Assembly (NCBI RefSeq): GCF_964204645.1
Contig: NC_134034.1
Span: forward strand, 5,058,914 to 5,122,913
Source of the DNA: Tubulanus polymorphus
Taxonomy: Eukaryota; Animalia; Nemertea
Length of the DNA: 64,000 nt
Direction of reading: 5' to 3'
Shown piece after piece: positions 1 to 59,767 of this stretch. The notes beneath the pieces are model-generated. The model worked only from the letters and a program-made list of their open reading frames with translations. It was not told where the DNA came from and did not search any database. The first letter of the stretch is position 1. Each line of letters starts with the position of its first letter. The position numbers and the translations under genes were made by a program.

Positions 1-981
1 CAATTAAATTTTGCTGTTTATTGTGCAACAACAGGTTGTGGAATTAGTTGGAATGATCATTTGAATAATTCTAAATATAAATTAATTCAAAGTTTATTTA
101 GATTTCATACATACTTTCAAATCAGAATAATATTAAATGAATTAGAGTTCGCTTTACCAGGATCTAGATATTTTAAAGAATTAGATAATAATATTAATTT
201 ATCAAAGTTTTATTAAATTTGTAATGAATTTAATATAGATATAAATAATTCTGATTTTAGAACAATAATTGGAACAATAAGATCACTTCCTTGCCCTAAA
301 AAGATTGCAGAATATTGTGCACTTCCCATACCATCTAATAGCTTTTATAATATCTATGATAATAAATTAGGTTATAGTAAAATAGAAACAAAGGATTTAG
401 AAACGATATAGAAATGAAGTTTTAGATTCATTAACTAATTTAGAAATTTATGTTACTGAAACTAATAATTTTAATGCAAAGATGGAAAATATATTTCATG
501 TATATTTAATTAATTTTAAAAAATTGAAAGATGAAAAACAATGGTTATTAAAATCTAATATGAAGTTTTGGCAGAACCAATTAAATTTTGCTGTTTATTG
601 TGCAACAACAGGTTGTGGAATTAGTTGGAATGATCATTTGAATAATTCTAAATATAAATTAATTCAAAGTTTATTTAGATTTCATACATACTTTCAAATC
701 AGAATAATATTAAATGAATTAGAGTTCGCTTTACCAGGATCTAGATATTTTAAAGAATTAGATAATAATATTAATTTATCAAAGTTTTATTAAATTTGTA
801 ATGAATTTAATATAGATATAAATAATTCTGATTTTAGAACAATAATTGGAACAATAAGATCACTTCCTTGCCCTAAAAAGATTGCAGAATATTGTGCACT
901 TCCCATACCATCTAATAGCTTTTATAATATCTATGATAATAAATTAGGTTATAGTAAAATAGAAACAAAGGATTTAGAAAC
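1..981 (+). repeat. 577-bp tandem duplication inside the first viral gene
   Basis: 1-404 matches 578-981, including the same premature TAA; junction at agaaac|gatataga (404/405). Confidence 0.93.
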
Positions 982-1708
982 ATTAAATTTCAATAAATTA
1001 CCGAAATTTTATGATAATTTAAAACAAGAAAACAATAATGGTTGGGTTTATTTAATTTTAAAAAATAATGAAAGTTTTACAAAATCAGGTATACAAAGAA
1101 TAAATCAATCTATTAGAACTTATTTGATATGTATTCTAGGATCGCAAGTTGAAACAAGATCCCCAATAATTGGAAATTTAAATACATCATTTGATACACA
1201 AAAACAATTCAAAGTATTATTTGAAGATTCCATTCATAATGATAAAAATAGATCGATTCCAGAAAACATTGTAAGATATCAAAATTATTTAGATAAATCA
1301 CATATTAGATTAAATTATTGTATAGGCCCTAATCTATTTATTATTTCTAATGATTTAGTATTAAAGATGGGAAACATAATTGGTTATAATAATCTAATTA
1401 AAACTGCAACAATAAATAATTCATTTGGATTGAATGATATAAATAAAAAGATAATTACTGCTCCAAAATTAATGGAAGGTGAAAAAAATAAAAAACATAT
1501 TCAATCAACAGAAACTAAAACTAATAATATTAAATTAAATAATGATTCTAAAATAAAAGATTAAAATACATCAGAAGATATAAAAACTGATAATATTCAA
1601 CATGATATAATTAAACTAAATGATGATAATAAATCCCATGAAAATACTAAATTAGCTTTAACTTGTATAGGAATTGTAATCGGAGGAATATTATATTTTA
1701 AATTTTAA
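482..1708 (+). pseudogene. Conserved Polinton-like virus protein (WQNQLNFAVYCATTGCG motif) with C-terminal transmembrane anchor, interrupted by in-frame stops
   Basis: ORFs 482-793 and 1124-1564 are in the same frame. Reading through TAA 791-793 and TAA 1562-1564 reaches HENTKLALTCIGIVIGGILYFKF* at 1708. The true start is probably upstream of 482. Confidence 0.7.
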
Positions 1709-1723
1709 TTTTTTATTATGTAA

Positions 1724-3418
1724 ATGGCAGAAGGTGGAGAAGATATTCCAATGGATCCTTTAGATGAACCTGGAATAAGTGATGAACAACCACCTGATTT
1801 TAGTGAAACAAGTTTTAATGATGATAATGAGCCCGAATATAATACTAATTTAGGTGAAGATGATGATTATGATTATGAAACGCGTAAAGAATTTAAAGAA
1901 TATATGACAGCTACCGAAAGGTTAGTTATTAGAACCTCAACATCTAGAAAGGATTTAATGGAAAGATTAGTAAATACAACTGATCCTCTTATGAAATCTC
2001 AATTAAAATTAATGAAAAATAGAGTAATATATACAATTGTTAACGTATTATTACCAAAAGATGAAATAGATGAAATTGGTCCCGAAGGTGTTGTAGAACA
2101 AATTTTAAAAGATGACCCATTTTTCATGAATAATTTAGAATTTAAAAATGATGCAGGGTATTATAATGTTGAATTAAATAACAAAAATGTATCAATTCAA
2201 TTATCTAGAATGGGTCAAGAAAATATTTTTGAACCTGGAATGCGATCAAGATCTACAATTGAAGGTTCAAAAGGCGGTAGAGAATTTCTCAGAATTATAT
2301 GGAATGCAATCGATAGAATAAATAAAAAAACCAATTCCTAAAATTGATATTAACAAATATTCACCATTTAAAAATCCAAATTTAAATTCTACTGATGTTG
2401 ATCCAGAAATGGAAGAATATGGAGATCGATCAGATAGATTAAGATCTTCAACACCCGAAACATCGAGAAGAGATATTCAACAAATTGATAATGATTCAAA
2501 TCAATTACAAGTAGTAAAAAATTTTGATAAAATGTTTGATACAATTCATTCATTTGACGAAGAGATGAATAGTATTTTAGATACACCCGGTACTGAAACT
2601 GGAATAAATCGAATACAATCTTTACTAGAAAAAGGATTTCTCAAATTAACTGATGAAGAATTAGAAACATTTCCTGAACAAGCACGTAGAGAAATTAAAG
2701 GCATTCAAGAATCAGCTGATGAAAATGCTAATATTAATATGAGATTTTCTAAAACAACCATGTTAGAAAAAGAATTAGCTATTGCAAATGAAAAATTAGA
2801 ACAATTAAAATTAGATAAAAATCTTCAATTAATCGAGGAAGCTGATTATGAAAGCAGAAAGTTAGCTTTAGAAAAAGAAATAGATGATTTAAAATATAAC
2901 ATAAAATTACAAAAAGAAGAAAGAGATACATTATTAAAATCATATGATCTTAATCATATTAAAAAATTAAAAGTTATTTTTAAAGATTTGTTGATAAAAC
3001 CAAATTCTAGAATATCATTAAAAGACAGAATAAGATTATTATTTAAGTTAGAAGGTATATAATTCTTTCAATTCTAACAGCTGTGACTATGTTATTTACA
3101 ACAATTGGTTTAGCTATATCAAATGCTTTAAAATCTACTCCTACTCCCAATAAACCAGATAAACCCCCAGATAATAATAATTCTATACAAGATAAAGTTA
3201 AAGATGGTTTAAAGAAATTAGCAAAATATTTATGGGAACTATCTAAAAAATCTGCTGCAGCATTACCAGGAATTATTGCATCAATTTTCGGTTTTATATT
3301 AAAATCTGCTGGGAATATTCTTAACTTTGCTGCTGAACATATTATTTTATTTTTAATTACAGTTGTAAGTGCAATTATTTTTGGGTTAGTAAATATGATA
3401 TCAAAAAATATCAAGTAA
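1724..3418 (+). pseudogene. Single viral gene of about 560 aa: acidic N-terminus, coiled coil, C-terminal hydrophobic/amphipathic helices; two frameshifts
   Basis: ORFs 1724-2341, 2409-3062 and 3083-3418 join through a frameshift at the A-run near 2324-2330 (the downstream frame is open from there: KPIPKIDINKY...) and a second at about 3060 (LEGI / IILSILTAVTM). Confidence 0.72.
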
Positions 3419-3458
3419 CCATGATAAAAAATAAATAATTAATTTTTTTGTTAAATAA

Positions 3459-4706
3459 ATGAGTGGGAGTTATATCAATCCTTCTAAGAATCATAGAATA
3501 TCTAATGCTATTAAAGCAGAAAGATCACATCATATAATTACTCATAACCCTTCTAATATTAATCCCGATGAAACTTTATATGTTAGAATTCCTCGATTAA
3601 CACAAAATACTTTTTATGTTCCAAATAGTATTTATTTATCAGCTGATATAAAAGTAATCGGTAATAATAATAATTATGTTGTTGATAATGTTGGAAGATA
3701 TTTGATTAAAAAATTAACAATAAAGATTGGACCAGAAACAGTTTTCTCATTAGATGATTATAATTTATTTATGCATTATAAAGATTTATGGTTAACTAAA
3801 GAAAATAGAAATAATATGATATTTCAAGGCATCCAATCAGAAAACCAAAATAAATTAAGATCTGAAGCCAATAATGCAGTAGTAACTAATGCTGTAGATA
3901 ATTTGATAAAACAGATTTATGGAAGCAAATATAAAATTCCATTAGACTTTGAATTGATAAATAACAATGCACCTTTATATAAATTCGCAATTCAAGAAGA
4001 CGTTATATTCGAAATAACATTTGCTCCTGTAAATCAAATTGTATTATCTAGCGTTGTTAAAGATATGAGTTATAAATTATCGAATATATGTTTAGAATAT
4101 GACACAGTAACTGATGAAAATATTTCAAGTATAATTCAAACTCAATACAATCAAGGATTTTCATTATTATATGATTATATTGATAAATTTAAAACTGTAA
4201 CTATTAATGCAAATGATGAAATTATTAATGAGAATATTAACTTCCCAAGAAGATCTATTAAAGGTATATTAATATTTTTTACCATTGCAACATATTCTAA
4301 TGGTGCAATACAGGTTGATGATTATTATAATCCTGAAATAACAAAAGTAGAAATAACTATCGAAGGAATAGCAAATAAAATATTTTGTCAAGGAATGAGA
4401 ATGATTGATCAATGGCCAGAAATTAGAAAACATTTTATGAATGAAAAAGTGAAATCATCTGAAAATTGTAACATTAATCAAATTGATTATTATACCGGCA
4501 ATAAATATGCATTATGGTTAGATTTTAGAACAACAGAGGATATTTCATTACATGGTTCTGGAAAAAAATTACAAAACACTAAAGATGAAATACAATTATT
4601 CATGACAAAGAATAAAGGAATCAAAAATTTCAAAATGCACATTTATGTTATATCTGACGCGCAATTAAATATTGTAAATTCACAATTAGATAGTGTTATG
4701 TATTAA
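3459..4706 (+). CDS. Probable major capsid protein (double jelly-roll type) of Polinton-like virus
   Basis: Intact 415-aa ORF, beta-strand-like alternating hydrophobic pattern, size typical of Polinton capsid proteins, next to ATPase and integrase; resembles capsid proteins of marine-invertebrate Polintons as I recall them (ITHNPS, YKDLW, LDFRT, LHGSG motifs). Confidence 0.75.
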   Translation: MSGSYINPSKNHRISNAIKAERSHHIITHNPSNINPDETLYVRIPRLTQNTFYVPNSIYLSADIKVIGNNNNYVVDNVGRYLIKKLTIKIGPETVFSLDDYNLFMHYKDLWLTKENRNNMIFQGIQSENQNKLRSEANNAVVTNAVDNLIKQIYGSKYKIPLDFELINNNAPLYKFAIQEDVIFEITFAPVNQIVLSSVVKDMSYKLSNICLEYDTVTDENISSIIQTQYNQGFSLLYDYIDKFKTVTINANDEIINENINFPRRSIKGILIFFTIATYSNGAIQVDDYYNPEITKVEITIEGIANKIFCQGMRMIDQWPEIRKHFMNEKVKSSENCNINQIDYYTGNKYALWLDFRTTEDISLHGSGKKLQNTKDEIQLFMTKNKGIKNFKMHIYVISDAQLNIVNSQLDSVMY

Positions 4707-4738
4707 AATTTTAACTTTAATAAAAAATCTTATATTAA

Positions 4739-5581
4739 ATGGAAGGAGGTAAAGTATATAAACATATTCCATACATCGATACACATGAAAATAATGATGG
4801 TTTATATTATGTAATACCTTGTAATATAGCTTTGATATTTGATCCTATTTTCAAAATTTATAAAACTAAACTAATAGAAATCGATAATAATAAAAGTGAA
4901 GTTGTTGATAATTTAAGTAATGTAATTGATAATAATGTAATACCTTCTACATCTGATAATGTAATACCTACTACATCTAATAATGTAATACCCTCTACAT
5001 CAAATAATGTAATACCTTCTACATCTAATAATGCAATAATATTAAATTTTAGTGAAAATAGAAATTATTGTGATTATTGTAAAGGCGAATTTTCAAACGC
5101 TCCATCAAATTGGAATAAACATATGAATACAAGGGTACATATAAATAATGTTATAGAACGTGTTGGTTTAAAAGAATTTATAGAACACCCATTTAGATAT
5201 GTTACAAAATTTGTTTCAAATAAAAAAGTAAATGGTGAAAAAATATATGAAGATTTTTTATTAGCAACACCTAATAAAGATGAATTAGATTTAACCGATG
5301 CTAATGAAATATTAGGATCAAACACTGTAAATGAAATATTAGGAGCAAACACTAATAAAGATAATAATGAAAATACAGGAAAGCGCATTGATAATAAAGA
5401 TTCTATGAAACTTAAATCAGAAAATAAAGATATAGTTGAGATGCCTAATAAGTATATCAATAAACCAATTATTTATGAAGATACGGTAGAGCATTTGAAT
5501 AAATTGTTAGGGGCTGATGATGAATTGGAGAGTGATGATGAAAGTGATTCAGAAATTAATCATCTAACACTCAAAAAGTAA
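4739..5581 (+). CDS. Viral protein with 8-aa repeats (NNVIPSTS x4), a C2H2-type zinc finger and an acidic tail
   Basis: 280-aa ORF; 24-bp tandem repeat at about 4930-5032; CDYC-x13-H-x5-H motif. Confidence 0.7.
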   Translation: MEGGKVYKHIPYIDTHENNDGLYYVIPCNIALIFDPIFKIYKTKLIEIDNNKSEVVDNLSNVIDNNVIPSTSDNVIPTTSNNVIPSTSNNVIPSTSNNAIILNFSENRNYCDYCKGEFSNAPSNWNKHMNTRVHINNVIERVGLKEFIEHPFRYVTKFVSNKKVNGEKIYEDFLLATPNKDELDLTDANEILGSNTVNEILGANTNKDNNENTGKRIDNKDSMKLKSENKDIVEMPNKYINKPIIYEDTVEHLNKLLGADDELESDDESDSEINHLTLKK

Positions 5582-5584
5582 TAA

Positions 5585-5940
5585 AGGTTGAAAATTGTAT
5601 AAAATAATAGTAAATAAAAAAGGGGGTTTTAAGTATTAAGGTATCTAATACGTATCTAATACATATCTAATACGTATCTAATACATATTATTTGAAAATA
5701 CCTTAAATTATATTTCTTTTTTAAATTTATATTGAAACCTCAGTAATAATAAAGGTTATTTTCAAACTTATTCATATATTTGTTGAAAAAATAAAAATAA
5801 ATTGGTTGAAAATTGTATAAATAATATTTATTTTAAAAAAGGGTTTTAAGTATTTAAGGTATCTAATAGGGTATCAGGTATTAGGGTATCAGGTATTAGG
5901 GTATCTAATAGGGTATCTAATACATAGGTATACAAATAGT
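5585..5940. repeat. Intergenic region between the convergent gene blocks, with duplicated motif and GTATCTAATA-type short repeats (candidate terminator region)
   Basis: ggttgaaaattgtataa...gggttttaagtat...ggtatctaata occurs at about 5586 and 5804; a reverse-complement homolog is present in copy C at about 58375-58492. Confidence 0.55.
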
Positions 5941-6551
5941 TATTTTATAAATTTATATTCATATGGAAATTGTAATCTCAGTAATAATTTTGAACCTTTA
6001 TTATTCTTTAATTTATTCATATATTCATCATGTTATTCAGTGGGTATAATTAGATTTTCTTCCAATGATTGTTGCATAGATTTTCTATCTTTGTTATAAA
6101 ATAAAACTAGAAATCTTATATTCTCCCTAAAGTCTTTAACAATTGAATTATATTTTTGATTTAAAACCCATGTTGTTATCCCAAAATGTCTCCCAGAGAA
6201 AGCTAAGTAACATAACTCACTTTCTCTAACTTTTGAATCATGTAAATTTGCGCAATCATCTATAATGAATAATGTATTTGATCCTTTATAAGTATCAATT
6301 GCTATTTTTATACAATTATCTAAATTTTCTTTTACTGTTTTAGGATTTAATATAATAAACTTTTTTATCTTAACTATATCTCTATTATATGTTTTATTTA
6401 TTTCATAAGTAGGACAGAATAATATTATATTATCAAAATGATTCTTATAAATAGTTTCTAACAAATCTAATATGAAATGTATTTTACCACAATTGGTTAC
6501 ACCAGTAACTAACATATTATGCGGTTTAAATATAAATAAATCTTTATTCAT
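5940..6551 (-). pseudogene. A32/FtsK-like genome-packaging ATPase with a premature stop at 6033-6035
   Basis: Walker A GVTNCGKI (T>I), Walker B LFIIDD, GRH and LNQ motifs; frame continues HDEYMNKLK...FPYEYKFIK* to 5940. Confidence 0.88.
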
Positions 6552-7630
6552 TTATTCTTTTAATTTTGATAGATAAAATCCATTCATTAAATTTATCATC
6601 ATATCCTTTATATTTCACCAAAGAATACTTTTTTCCTTTAAGAGTTTTTGTTTTCAATACTTTTTCTATTTTGTATTCTATTTCATCTGGATTTGGTACA
6701 AGTGATAATTCTTGTTCATAGAAATAACCTAATATTTCTTCATCTTTTAAATCTTCTAATTTATAAACAAAAGGTTTAGTTAATATTATCTTTTTAATCT
6801 TGAATATTTCTTCAGTAAAATTAGGGGTATAACCTTTATAAAATGTTTTTCTATATTTAGATATTCTTACGTGTTGTCCTATTTTAAATTTAGGTTCTCC
6901 GAAATCATGTGTGACAAATGCGCCATATAAATTATTCTAAACTATTTCCGAATTATCTTCTTTTCTAGCTTGTATAGGTTTCATATTTATAGAACTATGT
7001 TTAGAATTATTATAACCTTTCACTAAATTATATCGATACATCGATATATCTATATGTTTCGTTAGCAGTAAAATATTTCCACATTCTAGTTTTCAATGTT
7101 TTATTAAATCTTTCTATAATAGATGCTTTTTTATCTGAATGTGTTGAAAAATAATCTACATCGTTATCAGATAAGAGTTTTTTAAAATGTTTGTTATAAA
7201 ATTCCTTACCTTCATCAAATTGTATCTTATCTGGAGTAGCTTCTTTAAATATTGATTTAAAAGCATTTGTTACTTCTATACCAGTTTTATTTTTGATTGG
7301 AATTGACCATGCGTATCTGCTGAATATGTCTATAACATTTAATATCCAGAAATATCCTTTGTTGTATTCTTCTAAGTTCTTCATGTCAATTAAATCTGCT
7401 TGCCATGGTTGATCGATATATGAAACCATAACTTTTCTTGTTAAATAAGTTTTATCCATTTTCTTGTGGATTTGATATGTTGGTTGATTTTGTAACCATG
7501 ATTTCAATTCACTATATTTTATATTTTCATTATCAGATTTAATTTTATTCCATAATTCTGAAACGTTAGAATATGATACTTCACTTTCTGGGTTATAATA
7601 TAAATCTATTAAATATTGTTCTTTTTTCAT
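6544..7630 (-). pseudogene. Polinton-type retroviral-like (rve) integrase with C-terminal chromodomain; frameshift near 7030 and one in-frame stop
   Basis: WQADLIDM, IDIFSRYAW, QFDEGKEF and IERFNKTLK (DDE core). After the frameshift: KFKIGQHVRISK...KGYTPNFTEEIF...FYEQEL...YKIEKVL...LVKYKGYDDKFNEW. Confidence 0.93.
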
Positions 7631-7636
7631 CTTATT

Positions 7637-7996
7637 TTAATCCATTAATAATAATTTAGATTTAGTTTCAATGGTTTTATGATTTGACTTATTTTCTGGT
7701 ATGATAGGTTTATTGTCATTGGAATCATCTTTATCATCAGATTTGAATTTTGATTTATATATTACACCGGATAATATAATAATTGTGATTCACCCAATTG
7801 TAATATATAAGTAATTATTTCTTCCACTATTAGAAGAATGAGATGGATTATTATGTGAATCAATATCAGATGATTCATTTATATCAGTTAATTTCTTTTT
7901 CTTAGCTTTTTTTAATTCTGAAGATCTTTTACCTAATTCTCTTGCCCATTTAATTTGTTTCTCTGATCTAGCCTTTTTCTTAACGCTATCACTCAT
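7637..7996 (-). pseudogene. Small basic protein with a transmembrane segment, premature stop at 7790-7792
   Basis: Lys-rich N-terminus; reading through the stop gives YLYITIG*ITIIILSGVIY and an in-frame end at 7637. Confidence 0.6.
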
Positions 7997-8597
7997 TTAT
8001 TTTAGTTAATTTTTGTTCTGATTCATTTTCTGTTTCGACGTTTGGTTGTAGTACAGTGTCATCTGTTTCGTTCTTACCTGATTTATATTCCATAGGTTTG
8101 ATGTTCGAAAATGTTATGACGCCAGTAGAAATTAATGTCATAACCGATCCTAATTGATATGAAGCATAACCAACCCATTTTTGTAATTCAGTCATAACTA
8201 AATAGTCATTTTTCAAATCACTATATAATTTATTTTCATCATCAATTGGTATTAACTGGTTACATAACTTAGAGTAACATTTGACAATACCATCTGAAAT
8301 AGAATCATTTATTCGGGCTAATCTTGACTCTTCATAAATTTTAAAATGTTTTATTACTTTATCGGGTTTCATAGAGTCTAGTTCTTGAAAAGTAATGAAT
8401 CTATTTAAAAACTCCTTAGTTTTTCCACCGGCAATCAATGGTTCTAGATGGTGTTTACAATATAAATAGTATTCATAATCTATATTACAATTAACTTGAG
8501 CACAATTAGTAACAACTGTATCTTTATCATCACTTATACCCAAATCATCTAATGTTTTTTCAATATCGGCATTATTCTTACTCGATTTCTTTGACAT
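7989..8597 (-). CDS. Hypothetical helical protein of the Polinton-like virus
   Basis: Intact 202-aa ORF, TAAATG start, overlaps the next gene by 8 nt. Confidence 0.7.
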   Translation of the reverse strand: MSKKSSKNNADIEKTLDDLGISDDKDTVVTNCAQVNCNIDYEYYLYCKHHLEPLIAGGKTKEFLNRFITFQELDSMKPDKVIKHFKIYEESRLARINDSISDGIVKCYSKLCNQLIPIDDENKLYSDLKNDYLVMTELQKWVGYASYQLGSVMTLISTGVITFSNIKPMEYKSGKNETDDTVLQPNVETENESEQKLTKINE

Positions 8598-8903
8598 TTA
8601 TATTAGAGAAAAAAAGCAAAAAAAATATTATAAGTATTCTTCAAATGATACAAGTATCTCTTTGGGTTAATACTAGTTAGTTAAAGGTAAAGAATTTTAG
8701 TATTAGTTATTGTTTTTTTAGTATTTTTTTATTTGTGATATAAAGTATTCTTTTTTGAAAAGAAAATATTAAAAATATAATAGAATTCACTAGCTAGTTG
8801 AAGTTATTTTTTTTTAAATATTTTTTATTAAAAATCTATTATTCTTTAACCACTCATTAAAGACTCAACGTATTGTTCATTATTTGGATCATTGTTCCAT
8901 TGA

Positions 8904-9512
8904 TCAATAAATTTTCTTTGTCTTTGTTAACTGTTCTAAATATAATTGTAAATCTAGTTTATTAGATTTAATTATGTTTTCCTTCTTTTCTAAAGGTCTT
9001 AGATTCTTCCAATTCCAAATCAGTTTTTTATTGTATTCATCATTCATGTTAAATTTAGATATCGGTAACACGTGATCAATATGGTAATAATCCCCATAAT
9101 TATCTATATTCATTTTATCATCGAATTGAAATATAATCCATGATTTGAGAAATTCATCTGAACAACCCAACAAATTAGATAATGTTTCTGAATGTGTTTC
9201 TTTGTTGAATAATTGTGTTAATCTAGATCTTAGGCATTGTTTCAATCTAAAATTAAGATCTGTTTGATATCTTTCTCTCATATATTCTGCCATATAATAA
9301 TTATAATGTTCTATCTTATCTTCTCGATATTGTTTGGTATATAGTTTAGTGCAAGTTTTACAGCAATATTGAAAACCATCTTTGCTAATCTTACGCTTAC
9401 TAAATTCTGTTAATGATTTATCTAATTCACATTTAGAACACTTCTTGTAGTGTATATTTATAACACCAGTGTTATTTGTAATATTGATAGTTTGTGGTTG
9501 TTCTGGTTCCAT
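8904..9512 (-). CDS. Zinc-ribbon plus HNH/endonuclease VII-like nuclease of the type found in large DNA viruses; C-terminus probably frameshifted
   Basis: CSKC...CKTC zinc ribbon; LGCS, HIDHVLP and NLRPL...N..KSNK HNH-like motifs. Confidence 0.82.
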   Translation of the reverse strand: MEPEQPQTINITNNTGVINIHYKKCSKCELDKSLTEFSKRKISKDGFQYCCKTCTKLYTKQYREDKIEHYNYYMAEYMRERYQTDLNFRLKQCLRSRLTQLFNKETHSETLSNLLGCSDEFLKSWIIFQFDDKMNIDNYGDYYHIDHVLPISKFNMNDEYNKKLIWNWKNLRPLEKKENIIKSNKLDLQLYLEQLTKTKKIY

Positions 9513-9684
9513 TTATTATACGTATTTTTTACTAAATTGGTTAATATTTTAGAATCCTCTTCCATTTCTTCGACCAACGTCATCCTTTTTCATTCCTCGC
9601 CGCTTTTGATAAGTTGTTTCGATTCCTTGATATCTAAATCATACCAGTTACAATACCCGCGTCACATGCGGACATACAGGCGCG

Positions 9685-10200
9685 CTTTTGCTTAATGCGC
9701 ATGCGTTAATCATAATTATATATTCATTCTATAAATTCTGTAAAATAGAACCAACACATGCGTTACATGCGTTACGTGCGGCCATTAATGTCCGGTTTTG
9801 CTTAATGCACATGTGTTAATCATAATAGAAACAACCGACATGAAATATCTAAATAATACCACTGGGCAAACCGCTCTTATAGGAGCGTTTTTGCTTAATG
9901 CGCATGCGTTAATCATAATTATATATTCATTCTGTAAATTCTGTAAAATAGAAACGACCGACATAAAATATCAAAACGTGTTCGCACTAGGCAAAACCGC
10001 TCTTATAAGAGCGTTTTTGCTTAATGCGCATGCGCTAATCCTAATTATATATTCATTCTGTAAAATAGAAACAACTGAACATAGAAAATTCAAACGCATG
10101 TGCACTAAGCAAAACCGCTCTTATAGGAGCGTTTTTGCTTAATGCGCATGCGCTAATCCTAATTATATATTCATTCTGTAAAATAGAAACGACCGAACAT
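9685..10200. repeat. Five imperfect ~95-126-bp repeats with palindromic cores inside the virus
   Basis: gcttaatgcgcatgcg(t/c)taatc at about 9691, 9800 (variant), 9893, 10019 and 10137; cgctcttata(a/g)gagcg palindromes in three units. Confidence 0.85.
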
Positions 10201-11287
10201 AAAAATTCACCAATCAAATTTACACAATACATTATACAAGTTGTTCGGCCGTTTCTTCCAATACATCATTTGATATCTATAAATACAATTTATAATTACA
10301 AACTTTTTTCAATTGCTGGTAAATATTTAATTAACTACAACAACAAATGTTAAACTTAATCATTGGAGTCTTAATGTTTTTGAAATTCTTATATAGTTTC
10401 TTCGTCGATCTCTTGGCGATTCTTGTGTTTCTTGTGCTAATTTCTATTGGTTCGATATCCATTGCTTTTGATTCCTCAGTCAGAAAGAGTATCTTGAGTT
10501 TCTCTATCACTTCTTGATGCGTATGACGTTTTATTAATCTAAAAGATATTAGCGGCAACTCTAGCCATCTAAAAGATATACTAAATACACTTAAATATAT
10601 CTAAAGGTTTCATATTTAATAGCCCTAATAACTACAAAAAACAGTACTTACATTTAGATTTAGAATTGTAAACTATAAACTCCTAATTTCGTTTCGATAG
10701 ATAGAATATCCTGAGCACAATGTTACAGCGCCTGTTCATTTCTTGCCACGTCATCTGGTTCCGGTTCTAGAGTGTTCTCTACACGTTTGTAATATTATGA
10801 GTCATATGTCTCGGCGTCATAGTAACAGCTGTAACAGCTGTGAATTTATAGATTTATTCAATCGTTCATTACATGAAATGTATATAGGCTCAAATAGAAT
10901 CATGTTCTAGTATAAACAGCTATGCATTATTTCAATCACACTTTACTAACACTTTTAATGTTTAAACATCTATCTCACACAAATATGAATATTGAAATAA
11001 TGTTGTAAATATATACTTTTATATTGAATAATCTGTCAATTTAAATGTTATTCATTTATATGATTATTTTAGTATTTTTTATTTGTGATATAAAGTATTC
11101 TCTTTTGAAAAGAATTGTAAAAGAAAATATCAAAAATTAAAATAGAAATAATGGCTAGTTGAAGTTATTGTTTTTTTAATATATTTTATTTGAATTCTAT
11201 TTGATATCACCATGTGGGTGCCGTACGGCACCATCTCACTACTTTTGTTTTTCTATTAGGAGCAGTAATTATAACTGTCCAGATAAG

Positions 11288-11515
11288 TCATTTCGGATCC
11301 TTGATATCAAATTCCTCAACATATTGTTCATTATTTGGATCATTGTTCCATAATTCAATAAATTTCTTTGCCTTTGTTAACTGTTCTAAATATAACTGTA
11401 AATATTCTAGTTTCAATTTATTCTCTAAATGTGTTTTAGTTTTATTGTGTCTTGCTTTTTGGGATTTATCTATATTGATATTACATGTTGGGCTGTAGTA
11501 CTTATTTGCTTCCAT
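11288..11515 (-). CDS. Small protein with degenerate zinc finger, sharing its C-terminal tail with the HNH gene
   Basis: LQLYLEQLTK is shared with ORF 8904-9512; DNA 11065-11405 resembles 8715-8955. Confidence 0.55.
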   Translation of the reverse strand: MEANKYYSPTCNINIDKSQKARHNKTKTHLENKLKLEYLQLYLEQLTKAKKFIELWNNDPNNEQYVEEFDIKDPK

Positions 11516-11594
11516 TTTAATACTAAATTTTTTATTAAAATTGATTTTAGAAGTTATTCATTTATATTTTATTCATATATATGAATATTTTAAG

Positions 11595-11746
11595 AGTAAT
11601 AGGGAATAAGTTGTTTCATATCAAAGGTTGAAGGGGCGAGTGAGTAAAAAATAAAAAATAAATTCGAGTTTGCGAGAATTTATTTCTTATTTTTTATGAG
11701 CTCGACCCTTCGACCTTTGGTATGAAACAACTTATTCCCTATTACT
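11595..11746 (+). other. Terminal 152-nt imperfect palindrome (hairpin) of copy A
   Basis: The first 26 nt AGTAATAGGGAATAAGTTGTTTCATA are perfectly complementary to the last 26 nt; pairing continues to a TTTG loop. Confidence 0.95.
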
Positions 11747-12245
11747 GAGGCATACGTATCCTAAAACCCCTGTCGAAAAAATAATTTATCCCCTCTGTGA
11801 TAACAACTCTGTTGAAGACGAGAGACACTTCATTTTAGAATGCTCACATCTCTCTGTTATCAGGAATGCCCACTTTAAAACTCTCTCTGAATTTACAGAT
11901 TTCAATAACATAGGACACTCATCTAAATTTCCTTTCGTCGTGCAACCGTAATGACACTGAGATCGGTAGAACCGTCTGCAATCTCGTGAACGAACTTTTA
12001 AATTTCGTTCCTTGAGTTGAATTGAGAGATGCTACACATTGCTACTGTATTAGTTTTAATTCAATTGTATCCATTTGTCTTAATGTTCTTTTTCTCTTTC
12101 ACATATTTTAAATTGCATGCTGTTTAATTGTTTTTTATTTGTTTCCATAATTGTATTTGTATATTGTTTACTTTATTGATATGTAACTAATGCGTTTTCT
12201 TGTATACGTACGGAACAATAAAGTATTGAATTTAACTGAATTTAA
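11747..12245 (+). mobile_element. 3' fragment of a non-LTR retrotransposon (LINE)
   Basis: Degenerate C-terminal CCHC region (PLCDNNSVEDERHFILEC), T-rich 3' UTR, AATAAA and tgaatttaa tail repeats. Confidence 0.7.
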
Positions 12246-12249
12246 TTGG

Positions 12250-14302
12250 TTAACACGAGGGCGACAGCATCGATCCTCTTGGATACTGGGGCCCCAGTAA
12301 CCGTTCCTAGATGTTCAGTGTTGGAAGCCAGCCTAGGGGCCGAGTCCCCTAGGGATCTGAGACCGGTAGTTGGAAACCTTACCAAAGCAAATGGACAGGC
12401 CCTGTGATTCTGGGGGAGGCTGATGTTATCCTAGAACTAGGTGGTCTGAAATTCCTGGTCCTCATGGTTATTGCCGACGAGCTTTCAGAAGACTTTTGGG
12501 AAATTACTTCTTCCTGCGTCATAACTTTGTTCTCGGTGTCTCTCGTCACGTCCAGCAGTGGTTCCTGAATTAGATATCCCTTTGACTGAATTCTCAATCC
12601 CTAAGCTGTTGTCGAATTTTCGCCGATCGGACGACCTTCATACCGGCTTTTAGTGAGATAGATGGTGGTTGCCGGCCACTTCAAGGAAAGGTTTGGTCAC
12701 GACAATTCCATGCCGGGTATGATTGAGGGGAGTAAGCGTTCTCAATTCTGCACGGGTAAGAACTTGATCACTACGCAGAACAGGGTACGTGTCAGGATAG
12801 CAGATTTCTTGGACGCGCCGCTAAGGGTCAGGCACGGTGAACCAATCAGCTGTTTCAACCCACAGCAGTCTGTGGGGATTCTTACGGTTGCAGAAGAGGG
12901 CTGTCAACGCGATGTTGTTCTGCTTGGTTGGGGTCAACACTTTGAGACCCTATTAGAGGAGTTAAACGTACACAGCTTCGACATCCCAGACGCATTGAAG
13001 GCCAAACTTATCCAGGTTTTGCAAGAAAATCAAGATATATTTCGCGTGATGACTATGATATAGGACGGGCACGGCTGACAGAATGTGAGGAGATTCGAAG
13101 TTGGTGAAACAGCAACCACGGAGACTCCCGCCTGGACGTCGCGAATTTCTCCAGGAATACATTGGAGAGCTACTAAAGCACGACCTAATCCGCCCCTCCA
13201 GTTTTGCTTGGGCAAGCCCAATTGTTCTTGCAAGAAAAGCTGAGGTAAGCTGTGAAAGTTGAACGATTGTACTATCAATGATAGTCACCCGCTCGGTCGA
13301 ATAGATGGCCTGCTCGAGAACCTGTCTGGTTCGTCTTGGTTCTCGACCTTGGACCTGACTAGTGGATATAAGCAAGTTTCCGACAATGAGGAGGATAAAC
13401 ACAAGATTGTTTGTGTTCGAGAATAAGAGGTACGAATGGAATGTGATGCCTTTTGGTGTCACCAACGCGCCGTCATGTTTCACTCACCTGATATCGATGG
13501 CCCTGGACAAAGTTTCCTAGAAGACTGCCCTGATATACCTGGACGATGTTATCGTCAATTCGGCAGACCTTACATCTCACCTCGACAAATTGGCCGAAGT
13601 TTTCTCGTGTTTCTGGGCGGCGGGAATGAAACTGAAACCGAGGAAGTGCAATCTTAAGCACGGCGGTTGGCCTTCCTTTGCAATGTGGTAAGCGAAGCTG
13701 GGTTAGAGACAGACCCAACCAAAGTCTACAAGGTCCTAAGCTGGCCTGCACCGAAAGATGTCACCGAGGTCCGAAGGTTTCTGGGGCTGGTCACATACTA
13801 TGCCAAGTTCATAGATAACTACGCGAATATGTGCCAACCTCTACACATTCTTACCCGGAAGGATCCTGTCTGGCCTTCGACAAAATCAAGCTTGCACTCA
13901 CCCAGCCACCTGTTCGGGAAGATTTAGCTTGGATACTGATGCGAGCGATTGGGCTATTGGTGCGGTCCTTTCGCGGACACAGAACGATGGGTCCGAACGG
14001 GTCGTGGCCTATGCCAGCCGGACACTGAGGGCGGAGAAGAAAATTACTGCGCGACCCGTCGGGAGATGTTAGCTTTGGTCGACATGGTCGATCATTTACT
14101 TCCAACACTACCTTCGGGGCAAACCATTTCTGGTACGCACAGATCACGCTGCCCTCAAATGATTGGGTAGTTCACGAATACAGGAAGGCCAGGTCGCACG
14201 GTGGAACGAGAAACAAGCCGAATACGGATTTGAAATCCAGCACAGGCCAGGTGTAAAACATCAGAATGCAGACACCTTCTCCCGCATGCCGAACAAACAA
14301 CA
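12250..14302 (+). mobile_element. Degenerate Gypsy/Ty3 LTR-retrotransposon pol (protease, RT, RNase H; integrase absent)
   Basis: Frameshifted motifs LLDTG, LDLTSGY, MPFGVTNAP, YLDDV, VRRFLGLVTYY, DTDASD, ENYCATRREMLA, IQHRPGVKHQNAD. Confidence 0.9.
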
Positions 14303-14759
14303 TGTAACAAACGACTTTAGGCTTCTATTGGTTTTCCCGTTAAATGGACCAATCAGCGAACGTTGTACCGAACAAGGAAGTATTTCGCAAATCGATATAT
14401 GACGTCATACGCAACAGCGCCGGTAATGAAATCACGCTTCGTGAGGCCAGGGGTTTGTTGGAAGCGAGTTCGGAAGTGATACCGGACCCCTGGCAAGCGA
14501 GGATGGTCGAACCACGGTCTCGACTCATTTTAGGGAAGGGATGGCGTGGCGGACTCGGCTTAACCAAGTCCGTATCATTTGTTTAATTAGTCCGTTTCCG
14601 TGTTTTAATGTGAACCTGTAAGACCGGAAGCGGTCTCTTATTCTCTTGTGGTAGAATAAACCAGCTGTTGTTATTTCTATTGTTCGTGTTTATTGGTGGA
14701 AATAGGCCCACAAAAGGAGACATCCGATACGTATTCGTAAATTGAAGCGATTTGTTACA
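14303..14759 (+). repeat. LTR (457 bp)
   Basis: TGTAACAAA...TTTGTTACA inverted termini and internal AATAAA near 14656; abuts the RNase H end with no polypurine tract. Confidence 0.75.
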
Positions 14760-15228: not shown

Positions 15229-16161
15229 TCAACAGCAGATTTTCATACAGAAATATTCACGAATTTCTCGTCCCAGTAAAAGGTATAAGTAGAAATTTAC
15301 CACATAGTTACACATAGTAAAGTGAATGAAAATGTCATAAAGAAATGCTCTCTGCTCGTGTGAGATTGGTGACAATGCAGTTAAAGTTGATGGAAGTGTG
15401 AATGTCGCAAATGCGAGTGAAACTGTTACAAGCATTATTGTGGTACGTTTTGATTTTGTAGTTTTCTGATCAGACGAAACCATTTTCAAAGCTTTGAATA
15501 ATTGAACTATTATAACAAAATTTGATGTTATTATTAAACATAACGGTAGAATATACGTGTATATCACAAATATAGAGAAACTCATTATTCGGTCAATTAA
15601 TTTATAGTAACATCCAAACGATGGATCTTTAAAATGTATCGACAAAGCAGGGCTAAGATATAGAACCAGAACGTTAGCCCCAGTAATTATCAACGTAGTA
15701 TATCGAGCGAATTTCGGTGTACATATCAAACGAGAGGTGACGGGGAAGAGCACAACTGCCGCACGTTCTAGAGATATTGCTACTATTAACCACGAGCTAT
15801 TAGCGAGTGCAAGTGACAGTGTAAATCCATTTATTTGACAACTGATCAGTGAATTCATGATATATATGGGACCATCTTTAACGTAAAAGAGAACAAACTG
15901 TAAAACAGGCAACAGTGTATAAATGGAACAGTTAATGGAATCAGTGACTGACGAAATGATAAGATAGTTTGAGTAAGACAAACTGCGGAATCTGTGACTT
16001 ATCATGATCAGAAAAGTAGCTGAATTTCCGAAGGCTCCAAACAGAAACCAGATTGGCAGAATGGCCAATAACACGATGCGGTAGATTCCAGATCTGTTGA
16101 CCACAGACATGACAACGATGTTACTGTATGTTCGACCAATTTGAATATTAGTTGAATTCAT
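15229..16161 (-). CDS. Single-exon rhodopsin-class (class A) GPCR, peptide-receptor-like/chemoreceptor-like
   Basis: 310 aa, seven hydrophobic segments, N-terminal N-glycosylation site, GN in TM1, TM3 cysteine, SLER (DRY-like), TLP in TM6, NFYLY (NPxxY-like), C-terminal CC. Confidence 0.9.
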   Translation of the reverse strand: MNSTNIQIGRTYSNIVVMSVVNRSGIYRIVLLAILPIWFLFGAFGNSATFLIMISHRFRSLSYSNYLIISSVTDSINCSIYTLLPVLQFVLFYVKDGPIYIMNSLISCQINGFTLSLALANSSWLIVAISLERAAVVLFPVTSRLICTPKFARYTTLIITGANVLVLYLSPALSIHFKDPSFGCYYKLIDRIMSFSIFVIYTYILPLCLIITSNFVIIVQLFKALKMVSSDQKTTKSKRTTIMLVTVSLAFATFTLPSTLTALSPISHEQRAFLYDIFIHFTMCNYVVNFYLYLLLGREIREYFCMKICC

Positions 16162-17489: not shown

Positions 17490-17636
17490 AGTAATTGTAT
17501 AAATGGGGGTTCATACCAAAGGTCGAAAGGGCGAGCTCATTAAAAAAAATTCTCGCACCCTCGAATTTATTTTTTTAAATTTTTCACTCACTCTCCACTT
17601 CAACCTTTGATATGAACCCCCATTTATACAATTACT
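17490..17636 (-). other. Terminal hairpin of copy B
   Basis: AGTAATTGTATAAATGGGGGTTCATA ... TATGAACCCCCATTTATACAATTACT; inner core homologous to copy A. Confidence 0.95.
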
Positions 17637-18445: not shown

Positions 18446-18995
18446 ATGAATGAACAGATACTGCAATTCAAAGATATCGATTTACATGAATTCGAAAAAA
18501 AAAATTTTACAATTAAACATTTTATTCCTATTCAAGATTTGATTAAAACTGCACGTGTTCGTTTCCAAGTGAATAATATTACTGAATGTTTAAAAATCAT
18601 TATCTAATGATAGGGTTATCTAATGAAAAAGATAAAATCTTCAATACAATAATTCCAAAATTCACAACATTTGATGAAATAGTTAAACATTTAATAATTA
18701 CAGATGAAATACGATCACTTTTTAATAATGAAAATTCACATAAAACATTATTTTTACACTTACGTCATTGCCCTTTCAGAGAATGCTATGTAATGTTTTT
18801 CAGAGTACAAAAAAAACATTTATCCCTGACATTCCAAATGAAAAATCATTCAAAGATGTGGGAATTCAATGTAATTTAGACAATAACATCCAAACACCTA
18901 AATATGAACCTAATGAAAAAGCGTTATGTAATTGTGGAAAATATTATGCTCGAAGCAATAAATCACATTATCTCAAATCAAAATATCATAACTAA
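18446..18995 (+). pseudogene. Frameshifted viral protein with C-terminal CxC...H...H zinc finger
   Basis: ORFs 18586-18879 and 18768-18995 (LCNCGKYYARSNKSHYLKSKYH); homologs at 21142-21369 with 23050-23212, and at about 59300-59417. Confidence 0.65.
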
Positions 18996-19079
18996 AAAAT
19001 AATAATTCAACTCTTAATATTCATATATTCAGATATTTCAAATTAGTTATCAATCTTTTAATTTTTTTTCCTTAAATAA

Positions 19080-19303
19080 ATGAATGAGAATGATTTCAGC
19101 ATTCAACTGGAAAAAGTGATTTAAAACATTATTTACTTGCTGGAGGTTTAATATTGGCTGCGCTTTATTTTTACTATGAGAATATCAGTAAGGATCTGAT
19201 GAATGAAAATGTGAAATTGAGTAAGAAATTAAAGAAATTAAATGGAAATCATGAAAATAAAAAGAATAAAAAAGTTAATTTAGAAAATGATTTAGAGGAT
19301 TAA
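19080..19303 (+). pseudogene. Small single-TM/coiled-coil protein, frameshifted in this copy
   Basis: Homologous to open ORFs 20785-21078 and 58872-59090 (SDLKHYLVAGGLILA). Confidence 0.65.
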
Positions 19304-20797: not shown

Positions 20798-21385
20798 ATA
20801 AATCTATCAGAATAAATATTTTTATCATTATTGAAATTGTAATATAGAGAATCTGTGTCATTTATTACTGAATTTAAATTATCTTTTTTATTCTTTTTAT
20901 CTTTATGATTTCCATTTAATTTCTCTAATTCCTTACTCAATTTCACATTTTCATTCATCAGGTCCTTACTGATATTCTCATGATAGATATAAAGCGCAGC
21001 CAATATTAAACCTCCAGCAACTAAATAATGTTTTAAATCACTTTTTCCAGTTGGAATGCTGAAATCATTCTCATTCATTTGTTTAAGGAAAAAAATTAAA
21101 AGATTGATAAGTAATTTGAAATATCTTATTATGAAGAATATTTAGAGTTGAATTATTATTTTTGAGTTATGATATTTTGATTTAAGATGATGTGATTTAT
21201 TGCTTCGAGTATAATATTTTCCACAATTACATAACGCTTTTTCATTAGGTTCATATTTAGGTGTTTCGATTTTATTGTCTAAATTACATTGAATTCCCAC
21301 ATCTTTGAATGATTTTTCAATGTCGGGGATAAATGTTTTTTCTTGTACTCTGAAAACATTAAATAGCATTCTCTGAAAGGGCCAT

Positions 21386-23049
21386 GGGTCCTGCTAAAGT
21401 ACGAAACTACGAAATATGAAACGAAATTACGAAATATGGAGCGAAATTACGAAACGAAACGAAACGAAATTACGAAAGTACGAAACTACGAAATTAAGAA
21501 ATTACGAAATACGAAACGAAATTACGAAAATACGAAATTACGAAATGGAAATTTTTTGCCAGTAGTGCTAAAATACGAACCGAAATACGAAACGAAATGG
21601 TTACATTTCAAACACACGCCCATACTATGGTCAAAGCTCGTTATAACGCTACGGGACTGTAAAAATCTCGGCGGTGCATGTAAATGATCTTTTGAAAGTA
21701 CCATATTCAAGAATTTATTTTCTTAAACTGTAGGGTTTTAAGAACGTCTACAATTAGTAGAAACTTGTAGGATGTTCTCAAAAACAAATAATGAATACGC
21801 TGCGCCATTTCCACGAACTAAGACGCGGTAAAGCATAGTGAAATGATAGGCCCTACACATGGACTACATGACGATCTTTTTACCGCTTAACAGCTAGTCA
21901 CTAGCCCGACCGATATACAGTCAACCCCGCATAAGTCATAGCCCTCGGGACTGACGATTTTGCGACGACTTACGTGATGTACGAGTTATGTGTAAGTCAT
22001 ATTTTTACGAGTTATCTATAAGTCGTGGTTTCATACGAATTCCGCGAATAACCCGTGAAAATACGATATACGATTCTCAAGTTCCAGCGTGGTTAGTCCC
22101 CGGCCCAGTCGTATCCCGAGCTGACCGTGCAGGTCCTATATATCGTGCCCTACCACAAGAAAGTTACATTGTAACAGTCTAAACACTTACACAGACAATA
22201 TTGTAGCGTATTTTTGATTTATCTGTTGCCGGCATATCGGGCTACGACTTACGCGAGGTATTTTGAATGAAATCAGAAGATTTGGAATTTATAATTGATA
22301 CGACTTACGTGAAAATACGACTTATAAAGTACGAGTTATAAGCATTATTTTATAAGGTTTAAAGAAGAAAAAAATCGGGACCAAAATAATTATACGAGAG
22401 ATGTGATGATACGACTAATTCGATGACGACTTATGCGGGGGTTGACTGTAGCAGAAAGGAAAGGCAAGCGCTTCACGTGACACCGAGCTCGTAACCGAGA
22501 TAGGATTATCCCGTTCTTGGACACGGGCCGACATATCTGAACCTGTCTAGTATCGATCATTTAGCTCAGAAAAAATTAATGTACAGGGTAGATTAGCGGC
22601 CGGTCGGGTCAACTTTTAAGCTCCTCAGCAGAGGAGAAACGAGGTATCAATTTTTTAGCCTAAACACTGCAGGATATATTTTAAGGCACACTTCGTTCTC
22701 TAACCCGTAATTTATTAATCGCTACCTTCCAGTTGTATATGAGCATGCGCAGATCATTCTCCCTGATGGCATCGCTAAACTCAGTCGCGGCACGGAACCC
22801 TACCACACTAGACCGCGTGCGCATGTTTAAGCCAGCTCCAGGAATCCGCTGCTATAGTGCAAAAATTACAAAATTTTTGTTTCGTATTACATTTTGTACT
22901 TTAGCAGGACCCGCGAAAAAATGACAAAAAAATATATATATATCGTATAGTATTTCGTTTTGTACTTTAGCATTTCTTAATTTCGTTTAATATTTCGTAA
23001 TTTCGTTGCATATTTCTTGATTTCGTAGTTTCGTACTTTAGAAGTACCC
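21386..23049. mobile_element. Non-autonomous Mutator-like DNA transposon with a 9-bp target-site duplication
   Basis: TIR GGGTCCTGCTAAAGTACGAAACTACGAAAT / ATTTCGTAGTTTCGTACTTTAGAAGTACCC; TSD aagggccat (21377-85) / aagggcaat (23050-58); empty site visible in copy B near 18766-18775; ACGAAAT sub-terminal repeats; extra inner TIR ending at 22912. Confidence 0.85.
21918..22448. mobile_element. Tc1/mariner (pogo/Tigger-like) MITE
   Basis: TA|CAGTCAACCCCGCATAAGTC ... GACTTATGCGGGGGTTGACTG|TA. Confidence 0.88.
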
Positions 23050-23222
23050 AAGGGCAATGACGTAAGTGTAAAAATAATGTTTTATGTGAATTTTCATTAT
23101 TAAAAAGTGATCGTATTTCATCTGTAATTATTAAATGTTTAACTATTTCATCAAATGTTGTGAATTTTGGAATTATTGTATTGAATAAGATTTTATCTTT
23201 TTCATTTTTCATTAGATAATGA

Positions 23223-23335
<113 letters not shown>

Positions 23336-23339
23336 TGAT

Positions 23340-27682: not shown

Positions 27683-27739
<57 letters not shown>

Positions 27740-29769: not shown

Positions 29770-29823
<54 letters not shown>

Positions 29824-57659: not shown

Positions 57660-59767
57660 AGTACATAGATATATAATTTAGTTTTTATAATTTGAATTAT
57701 ATAATGTTTCAAATTTTATTTCATAAATTTATAAAATTGATAAAATAACTTAAAATCAAACTCGTACTGTTTTTTTCAATAAAAAACATATATAAATTAT
57801 ATATTATCACACCCGTACCATTCGTACACTCATACACTTATACACATTCTAAATTCTAACATATTCATATTTTTTAACTAATATATTTCTTATTTTCAGC
57901 TAATGTAATTTATATTTTCTACCAATATATTTTATATTTCAACACTGGAAATGTATAAATTATATTCAAATATGTATTTATTTTCATAGTAATATATAAA
58001 ATCTATCAGATGAATATCATATTCATTACACAGCACTAGAATATGATATTTATCTTTAAAATGATACTAGTTATTGTTTCTAATTGCTAACTGGGTTAAA
58101 TAATATTTTGAATAGATTCAATAAGAAAAACAATAACTTAAATAATTAAGTTTTAGTTATAGAAACCTATTGTTTTTCTAATGTTTTTCTATTAATTCTT
58201 ATTAATACTAAATTTCTTTACATTTGACTAAAATAATACTAGAAAAACAATAAACTAACTAACTAAGTATCACTCATATTATTCTAGTACTGCCTAAATA
58301 TACTACCAATATCATATTTGAATTAATTACTTCTGAGACTTCAATATTTCAGAAATAAAGCGTAATTTGTATAAGGTACGTATTTAATACGTATTAGATA
58401 CCATTAATACCTATAACCCCTTTTTAATGAAATATTATTTTTACACTATTCTATACATTTTCGCCCAATATATTTTATTTTTTCAACCAATTTAACAGTC
58501 TATTTCTTATTTTGATTCATATAATTCATCATTAAGTTCGTGAATATATTTATTATTTCTTAATGTTTTTTTTCATTTTTATACTTTTTATTACAAATTT
58601 CACAACACTTAATATTATTCAATCTATCTGATAGATAAAATTTATATTATCTTTCAATTATGTATATTTAATCTTGCAATTATCATAGAAATCCAATAAC
58701 TGTTTCAAACTATAAACTGAAAATGAAACCATTCCAGAAACCATAATGATTAACTTAATGCGCTCTTGATTACTAATAAAATTTAATAAATTTAATATAT
58801 TTTCACTCATTTTTATAGTTAAATTTTTGTAGTTAAAATATATAAAATAAATTAAATTAAACGATTCTGTCTTAATCCTCTAAATCATTTTCTAAATTAA
58901 CTTTTTTATTCTTTTTATTTTTATTATTATTTCCATTTAACTTCTTTAATTTCTTACTTAATATCATATTTTCATTCATTAGATCCTTACTGATATTTTC
59001 ATAATAAAAGTATAATACGGCCAATATTAAACCTCCAGCAACTAAATAATGTTTCAAATCACTACTTCCGGTTGGAATGAAACCATCCATTTATCTAAGA
59101 AAAAAAATGAAAAAATAAAAAAAATATTTACTAGTTTTTGATTTAATATTTTATAACCATTTTTGAAGTATTAAACTTTAAGATGATTAAATCTAATAAC
59201 AATTAAACAGTTATTCGTTAACTAATTTCACAATATTTTAACTATTATATATTTGAAACATACAGCTTAATCTTATTTCAATATATAATTATTATTCTTT
59301 TCATATTTGATATGTTTATTGGTTTGATAATGTTTTGATTTATGTGATTTTTAAATATTTACCTCCGCAATAACAATATATTTTTTCATTAGGATTGAAT
59401 TTTCTAAAATGTTCATTTTATAACAAAACTGTTATTAAAACTCATTCAAATATAAATATTCAATGTTAAAATATGAATTATTTCTCACACTTTACTCACA
59501 CTTTTATGTTAAAAAATCTAATTTTAATCAACTCGTTAATTACTCGTTAATTTCACACTTTACTCACACTTTGCTCACATTTTCATGATTAATACAAAAA
59601 TAATTTATAATTTATTTTAAAATATATGAAATTCATGTAAATAATGTTCATATATATATGAATATTATTAGAGTAATAGGGAATAAGTTGTTTCATATCA
59701 AAGGTTGAAGGGGAGAGTGAGCTCGACCCTTCGACCTTTGGTATGAAACAACTTATTCCCTATTACT
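57660..59767 (-). mobile_element. Copy C: hairpin-ended fragment or non-autonomous relative of the virus
   Basis: Reverse-complement homolog of copy B (TM protein ORF 58872-59090, zinc-finger remnants); ends in the A-type hairpin. Left boundary approximate. Confidence 0.85.
59672..59767 (+). other. Terminal hairpin of copy C (96 nt, tip deleted)
   Basis: Outer arms identical to copy A; the inner segment between the two TGAG motifs is missing. Confidence 0.95.

Follow-up and report, generated by a model that had tools for sequence, protein, structure and literature searches.

A conserved, strand-biased terminal hairpin with G.T and tandem G.A pairs in a Maverick-type element family of Tubulanus polymorphus

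Positions 11595-11746 of a 64,000-nucleotide stretch of the Tubulanus polymorphus genome (NC_134034.1, positions 5,058,914 to 5,122,913; here called the window) are the exact right end of a Maverick/Polinton-type element. This end is a real, conserved and strand-biased terminal hairpin of an animal Maverick-type family, and its function is what we infer below. That folding is strand-specific in one way or another seems quite probable to us. With moderate confidence, we propose more specifically that the G.T and tandem G.A pairs of the hairpin are kept for a selected fold-back of the 3'-terminal strand, which likely primes DNA synthesis.

Hairpin A, as we call this end, is a 152-nt inverted repeat whose pairing partners sum to 23341 and which pairs from end to end over 74 positions without a bulge. 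On the + strand these pairs comprise 64 Watson-Crick, four G.T, five G.A and one A.C. The original prediction had described two T.G wobbles, a TGAG/TGAG block and a tip with a second tandem G.A; every position that it named is present in the pairing ladder (Table 1), while a single G.A (11636/11705) and an A.C (11655/11686) were missing from it. The A.C of copy A is minority decay, because this position is paired in 1323 of 1747 reads. Both G.A tandems have the sequence pyrimidine-GA-purine on both strands, a context in which NMR structures show sheared G.A pairs that stack across the strands (PMC10085684).

Table 1. Features of the element and of its hairpin copies in the window.
Feature	Position	Strand	Remarks
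Broken virion-module gene, putative	1..1564	+	577-bp tandem duplication; 32-36% identity to 465-aa ORF beside the capsid gene in relative L002
Double-jelly-roll (DJR) capsid gene	3459..4706	+	Model pLDDT 87; best Foldseek matches are DJR capsids, E 1.6e-19; 773 homologues
A32-like packaging ATPase	6033..6551	-	Pfam Pox_A32 E 3.5e-11
rve integrase with chromodomain	6547..7630	-	Two reading frames; D79, D139 and E173 present; Pfam rve E 1.3e-9; Chromo E 7.7e-5, below curated cut-off
Endonuclease-VII-like HNH protein	8904..9512	-	PHROG 1035 'endonuclease VII' E 2.1e-17; 2 kb from end
Terminal hairpin A	11595..11746	+	3' end of + strand is the element end, 5'-AGT ... ACT-3'
Outer arm	11595..11620	+	26 perfect pairs with 11721-11746; both arms differ together between subfamilies
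Two T.G wobbles	11621/11720 and 11629/11712	+	
TGAG/TGAG block	11641-11644 with 11697-11700	+	T.G, G.A, A.G, G.T: tandem G.A between T.G and G.T
Tip, second tandem G.A in CGAG/CGAG context	11665-11668/11673-11676	+	C-G, G.A, A.G, G-C closing a 4-nt loop
Hairpin B	17490..17636	-	Left end of gene-less AT-rich derivative running rightward
Hairpin C	59672..59767	+	Right end of derivative, body from ~57660; inner stem between the TGAG words deleted

The terminal position of the hairpin is evident from the raw reads of the species (set X5). Read depth is ~2,270 on the left arm and ~16 beyond 11746, a ratio of 138 that is rough since the flank may itself be repeated, and 719 reads depart from the reference behind 11746 with unlike loose ends. 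The drop in depth and the unlike loose ends together identify the last base of the hairpin as the integration junction of a large family. A free MITE was ruled out, with depth continuous into the element body and with hairpins A, B and C of the window sharing the adjoining body. All three ends read AGT...ACT, and the second triplet is AAT.

The window starts inside the element, within its broken virion-module gene, so that the element's left end and any replication gene lie beyond it. The capsid has no match to Pfam DJR-like_dom (group-1 type), and its profile matches none of the 21 IMG/VR relatives of the integrase. Within the window there is no trace of pPolB by tblastn or Pfam, the left part of the element being outside, and no protease was seen in the 11.6 kb of the element that is present. 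A capsid search returned nothing in IMG/VR and three short contigs in genome_contigs (L001-L003, 34-38% identity), none with a long terminal palindrome; these are filed in bacterial or archaeal MAGs and are probably eukaryotic or viral contamination. One of them, L003 (38% capsid identity), has the same neighbouring genes and a pPolB-like ORF. Two further features lie between the coding region and the terminus: tandem units of 118-126 bp at 9632-10209, including an inverted repeat with 52-bp arms at 9983-10146, which are possibly an origin or a binding array, and a broken duplicate of the 3' part of the endonuclease-VII-like gene at ~11064-11515, directly beside hairpin A.

Conservation across the family was assessed in raw T. 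polymorphus reads (X5, from a study other than that of the contig runs), of which 4,721 cover 11613-11728; they carry no phase between positions. Variant figures refer to the best 40 of 82 variants, the smallest with a share of 3.0%, and positions outside these 40 probably lie below that value. Six of the eight tandem G.A bases are not found among the best 40 of 82 variants, and the other two are altered in 3-5% of reads. In the TGAG block, 11642, 11643, 11698 and 11700 are absent from these 40 of 82, and 11699 changes A>G in 134/2742 reads; at the tip the same is true of 11666, 11667 and 11675, with G>A at 11674 in 67/2257. In the second wobble, 11629 T>C gives C-G in 129/1399 reads (9%), and 11712 does not occur among the best 40 of 82. 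The first wobble shows T>A in 53/731 and T>C in 41/731 reads at 11621 and G>A in 476/2186 at 11720, so 13% of left-arm and 22% of right-arm reads differ. Two of these three changes lead to standard pairs, and 11621 T>A pairs only together with 11720 G>A. At the neighbouring 11622/11719 a T is gained in 8% of the left-arm reads that align, another 381 reads are clipped there and 11719 is absent from the best 40 of 82 variants, which suggests that the wobble may have shifted to the adjacent pair in one of the subfamilies. The G.T at 11644/11697 is converted by 11697 T>C (807/2704), the closing pair of the tip becomes G.T through 11673 C>T (760/2231), and the single G.A at 11636/11705 is T-A in 18% of reads. 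The original prediction that the non-Watson-Crick positions are conserved across copies is thus borne out for the tandems and the second wobble, but not for the first wobble (altered in ~22-35% of reads overall) and the flanking G.T (G-C in 30%), which are often ordinary pairs.

Where positions in non-Watson-Crick pairs do change, they mostly become standard pairs (11629 C, 11641 C, 11644 A, 11697 C, 11636 T and 11720 A), and the listed changes at the tandem-flanking bases 11641, 11644, 11673 and 11697 keep the pyrimidine-GA-purine context. The outer arms vary strongly but in step, staying paired, and compensatory changes are seen at 11653 A>G (70%) with 11688 T>C (57%) and at 11619 T>G (33%) with 11722 A>C (34%). 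Among the 12 Watson-Crick pairs with a listed transition, 10 are net G.T and two net A.C on the 3'-terminal strand (p 0.019 one-sided, 0.039 two-sided); for those with a transition on one side only the count is 6/7 (p 0.06). A decayed palindrome was therefore ruled out, in agreement with the original prediction: the non-Watson-Crick positions are kept over a large family in the X5 reads while the adjoining outer arm varies, and there is a bias toward the 3'-terminal strand. Of the 11 skip-type joints found among the best 15 of 59 read joints, seven lie within 6 nt of the hairpin axis, and the deletion that hairpin C itself carries is one such type; joints near the axis are expected if the stem forms in vivo.

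Hairpin A folds with -59.2 kcal/mol (z -17.9) on the + strand and with -52.7 kcal/mol (z -14.1) on the - strand, and 0/200 shuffles reach either value. The advantage of the favoured strand with DNA parameters is 6.3, 5.7 and 4.1 kcal/mol for A, B and C, respectively, and random mismatches at the same positions reach the observed gap in 8/300 trials, alike for A and C. It had been predicted that the two strands would not fold equally well. Both in fact fold well, and a gap of only 4-6 kcal/mol favours the 3'-terminal strand. The model used to compute this gap has no terms for sheared pairs. Among DNA mismatches, stability is highest for G.T, G.G and A.G and lowest for A.C and C.C, with an unusually high stability for tandem GA (PMC8163305); considering this ranking and the sheared context, the true gap is probably larger than computed. 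As predicted, most non-Watson-Crick pairs take the form G.T or G.A on the 3'-terminal strand, with counts of 9/10 in A, 9/10 in B and 4/4 in C.

Hairpins B and C terminate derivatives that have body sequence in common with each other and a subterminal part in common with A. Their far ends show neither a hairpin nor a target-site duplication and look truncated. Both wobbles are present in A, B and C and both tandems in A and B, C being without the inner stem, which confirms the earlier description; the 56-nt skip identical to the deletion in C was found in 22 X5 reads. At positions 7-20 of the outer arm, A and B are identical at 5/14 positions in each arm and differ at 9/14, yet pairing is 26/26 in A, B and C. 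Element B carries long internal inverted copies and is an apparent long-inverted-repeat derivative, in which body parts recur inverted at 93% (18590-19282, 20875-21386 and 23050-23376). On its far side a 190-bp palindrome surrounds a (TA)n run (23187-23376) and is followed by a Penelope-like remnant.

The claim that the three copies share one orientation is correct relative to the element body, but not in the window, where B is on the - strand. All three window copies (3/3) are thus one isomer relative to the body. In reads that include the body junction, the changes expected of a flop isomer at 11621, 11629, 11642 and 11643 are absent among the best 40 of 192 variants, the weakest of which stands at ~31% in the best run, and agreement among the loose ends beyond 11746 is just 0.36. 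Together these two observations make an equal mix of flip and flop unlikely, in keeping with the statement that no flip/flop isomer is seen, while a flop minority of up to ~1/4 is compatible with the reads.

We propose that the 3'-terminal strand folds back such that its terminal T would face the A with which the inner AGT begins, at the junction with the body, from where a polymerase would copy the element body. Synthesis that fills in the folded end would turn the outer arm into a copy of its partner, which would explain why the two outer arms change in concert. Through the non-Watson-Crick pairs, strand would differ from strand and arm from arm, with the result that a single isomer is propagated; these pairs may also make the integrated duplex less prone to extrude a two-armed cruciform. 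Plain terminal resolution inverts the hairpin in each round and cancels a strand preference by giving both flip and flop, and therefore an extra asymmetric step must be assumed: a single isomer might result from copying the 3' hairpin from an identical other end, or from asymmetric cutting of a head-to-head junction as in the left end of MVM (PMC1185569). Over 26 bp the two candidate cut sites of such a junction do not differ; the first differences between them are the non-Watson-Crick pairs. A role as 3' primer would account for the flush position of the fold and for the concerted outer-arm changes at least as well as reading by a protein. The main weakness of the priming proposal is the pPolB-like ORF of L003, since protein priming would need no hairpin primer. 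Further points against it are the 6/7 subset above, the far ends of B and C without a hairpin, and three observations described below, namely the A.C lean of rare transitions, the body changes and a one-sided control palindrome.

Could the folded 3'-terminal strand instead be a structure-specific site for the integrase, the endonuclease-VII-like protein or a packaging factor, serving resolution, integration or packaging and not priming? We consider this somewhat improbable. The same conservation data speak for it as for the self-primer, as does the identity of the candidate cut sites, by which the non-Watson-Crick pairs would be the only information separating flip from flop. The endonuclease-VII-like gene lies close to the end, and in vaccinia virus the hairpin mismatches are needed for I1 binding and maturation and not for DNA synthesis (PMC8956199). 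However, a protein site alone does not account for the wholesale concerted change of the outer arms. Relatives that lack such a hairpin can also encode endonuclease-VII-like domains (L041, with pPolB), and HNH genes are described as patchy, mobile cargo in related elements (10.64898/2026.07.28.741278).

It is unlikely that the non-Watson-Crick pairs are merely inherited arm differences, either frozen accidents or double-stranded binding sites, with a bias stemming from few founder lineages and strand-biased mutation (C>T, A>G). Any transition in a palindrome yields G.T on one strand, and the second wobble is a CpG-type transition. The three-copy evidence for strand bias, taken as independent blocks, is thin, with just 5-6 of them: 5/5 without the minority A.C (p 0.03) and 5/6 with it (p 0.11). 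The reads, in turn, weight large subfamilies. Control palindromes within the window split their mismatches by strand 4:0 (23187-23376), 3:4 (9983-10146) and 0:2, so small one-sided counts do arise by chance, and a small sample of polarised body changes comprises A>G 7 vs T>C 4. On the other hand, the G.A tandems are not transitions and both are in sheared-pair context, the positions that change mostly go to standard pairs, and the palindrome at 9983-10146, which splits evenly to within one, belongs to the same element. The rare variants also lack the excess of C>T and A>G that mutation bias predicts. Over all positions at >=1%, the counts are A>G 11, C>T 9, G>A 12 and T>C 19. From these totals, and not from individual variants, 24 rare transition positions are deduced to lean 17 to 7 toward the A.C side, some of them being partners or restorations. 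This lean would fit purifying selection, under which A.C changes arise but stay rare, and would count against plain mutation bias.

It is very unlikely that the selected structure is an RNA, a transcript toward the end folding into a long G.U/G.A stem as small-RNA precursor or decoy. In favour of this reading, pairs of the G.U and tandem G.A kinds are typical of RNA, RNA parameters give a strand gap of 11-15 kcal/mol, and the stem matches six Rfam miRNA-precursor models (all below gathering score). Against it, the end of the fold coincides exactly with the DNA junction, the adjoining genes lie on the other strand, the right arm has a T6 run that would stop Pol III, and 0/4 runs containing the stretch are recorded as RNA (in a DNA-type search, hence weak).

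The element has the DJR capsid, A32 ATPase, rve integrase and AGT...ACT end motif of animal Maverick/Polintons, whose ends are (AGT)2 (PMC8097293) as opposed to AGTAAT here. Maverick group 2 often has helicase-polymerase genes in place of pPolB (10.64898/2026.06.19.733378); the word 'hairpin' is without a match in the accessible text of either source. Also among the closest known systems are the endogenous virophages/PLVs of Halocafeteria seosinensis, which are mostly non-pPolB, have rve and palindrome ends, and for which hairpin priming was proposed; there, too, the palindrome is at the very end of an integrated DJR-capsid rve element, beside host DNA (10.64898/2026.07.28.741278). The host of these elements is a protist, and the palindromes are 52 nt in the subtype drawn, within TIRs and beside TSDs, whereas the T. 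polymorphus stem is ~70 bp with fixed G.T and tandem G.A. The word 'mismatch' is absent from the main text of that report, where neither strand-specific pairs nor an isomer count is described.

The left end of parvoviruses (MVM, LuIII) is likewise a 3' fold-back primer with a conserved mismatch, asymmetric dimer-junction resolution and one isomer at that end, but its GA/GAA bubble is read as a duplex by the HUH protein NS1, the genome is ssDNA and there is no rve integrase (PMC1185569, PMC8242256). In vaccinia virus a long AT-rich terminal hairpin of a DJR-capsid virus requires its mismatches functionally; this telomere is covalently closed, with flip and flop, extrahelical loops and not G.T/G.A, and no integration (PMC8956199). 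A flip-flop telomere of the parvovirus or poxvirus kind, with both isomers about equal, was not encountered here.

The analogy drawn earlier with integron attC and IS200/IS605 ends survives in principle but not as membership. In attC one strand folds better, partly through G:T mispairs (1.24 vs 0.39 per site) and purine skew, the mispairs favouring the recombined bottom strand; attC requires, however, extrahelical bases and a tyrosine recombinase, and it sits between cassettes and not at a free end (PMC5027507). Membership in attC was rejected, as no tyrosine-recombinase IntI family was found by Pfam in the 25 long frames of 1-11800 and hairpin A has no extrahelical bases. IS200/IS605, defined by the HUH (Y1) transposase (PMC10288648), was rejected in the same way, with no HUH (Y1) family match by Pfam in 11.8 kb, the left part being outside the window. 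The integrase of the element is of the DDE rve type.

Hairpin patterns gave no match in IMG/VR and one in metagenomes, a bacterial prophage without a hairpin. With a half-site pattern 32 IMG/VR loci were retrieved, among which no partner arm exceeded 11/17 and no protein likeness was seen. The integrase search retrieved 21 IMG/VR loci with other capsid types; four long palindromes folded among them show no clean one-strand pattern (gaps 5.3, 1.7, -1.1 and 2.6 kcal/mol), and none is shown to be a terminus. One locus, L038, has a 184-bp palindrome at 4657-4840 that separates the integrase from a pPolB-like gene; ACTACT/AGTAGT words occur close to the edges of this palindrome, whose strand bias is small.

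Terminal palindromes and hairpin priming are already known in protist virophages/PLVs. Strand-specific G.T/G.A pairs or a single isomer at Maverick/PLV ends were not found described in the literature covered, which consisted of open full texts, with most subscription papers, Repbase and the supplements of 2026 preprints outside this scope. The accessible parts of PMC11296320, PMC8502044 and PMC11161782 describe no such DNA end, and 'hairpin' in those of 10.1101/2022.05.25.493380 refers to protein beta-hairpins. The idea that Mavericks/PLVs without a protein-primed polymerase start replication from a hairpin primer has so far been based on no more than the occurrence of palindromes at their ends. 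The conserved strand-specific pairs and the arm changes in concert add sequence evidence that the hairpin forms, and on which strand, and the idea becomes testable with short natural oligonucleotides. Tentatively, and as a possibility that we rate below the priming proposal itself, an animal Maverick lineage may have swapped protein priming for parvovirus-like 3' hairpin priming while keeping its retroviral-type integrase. The G.T and sheared G.A pairs would let only the 3'-terminal strand fold and would mark the arm to be cut, so that a single isomer is integrated, making this a structure-read DNA end for a DDE integrase element. If true, this would also provide one of the few examples of selection acting on sheared G.A tandems in genomic DNA.

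The flank beyond the hairpin contains a broken gypsy-like reverse-transcriptase remnant, recognised by eye (13030-14400, + strand), and a single-exon rhodopsin-family GPCR gene (15229-16161, - strand; Pfam 7tm_1), both of which point to an animal host. Elsewhere in the window, near-perfect tandem duplications of 577, ~2090 and 651 bp (99.7-100%) at 1-981, 26189-30367 and 47210-48515, respectively, are either very recent or assembly artefacts.
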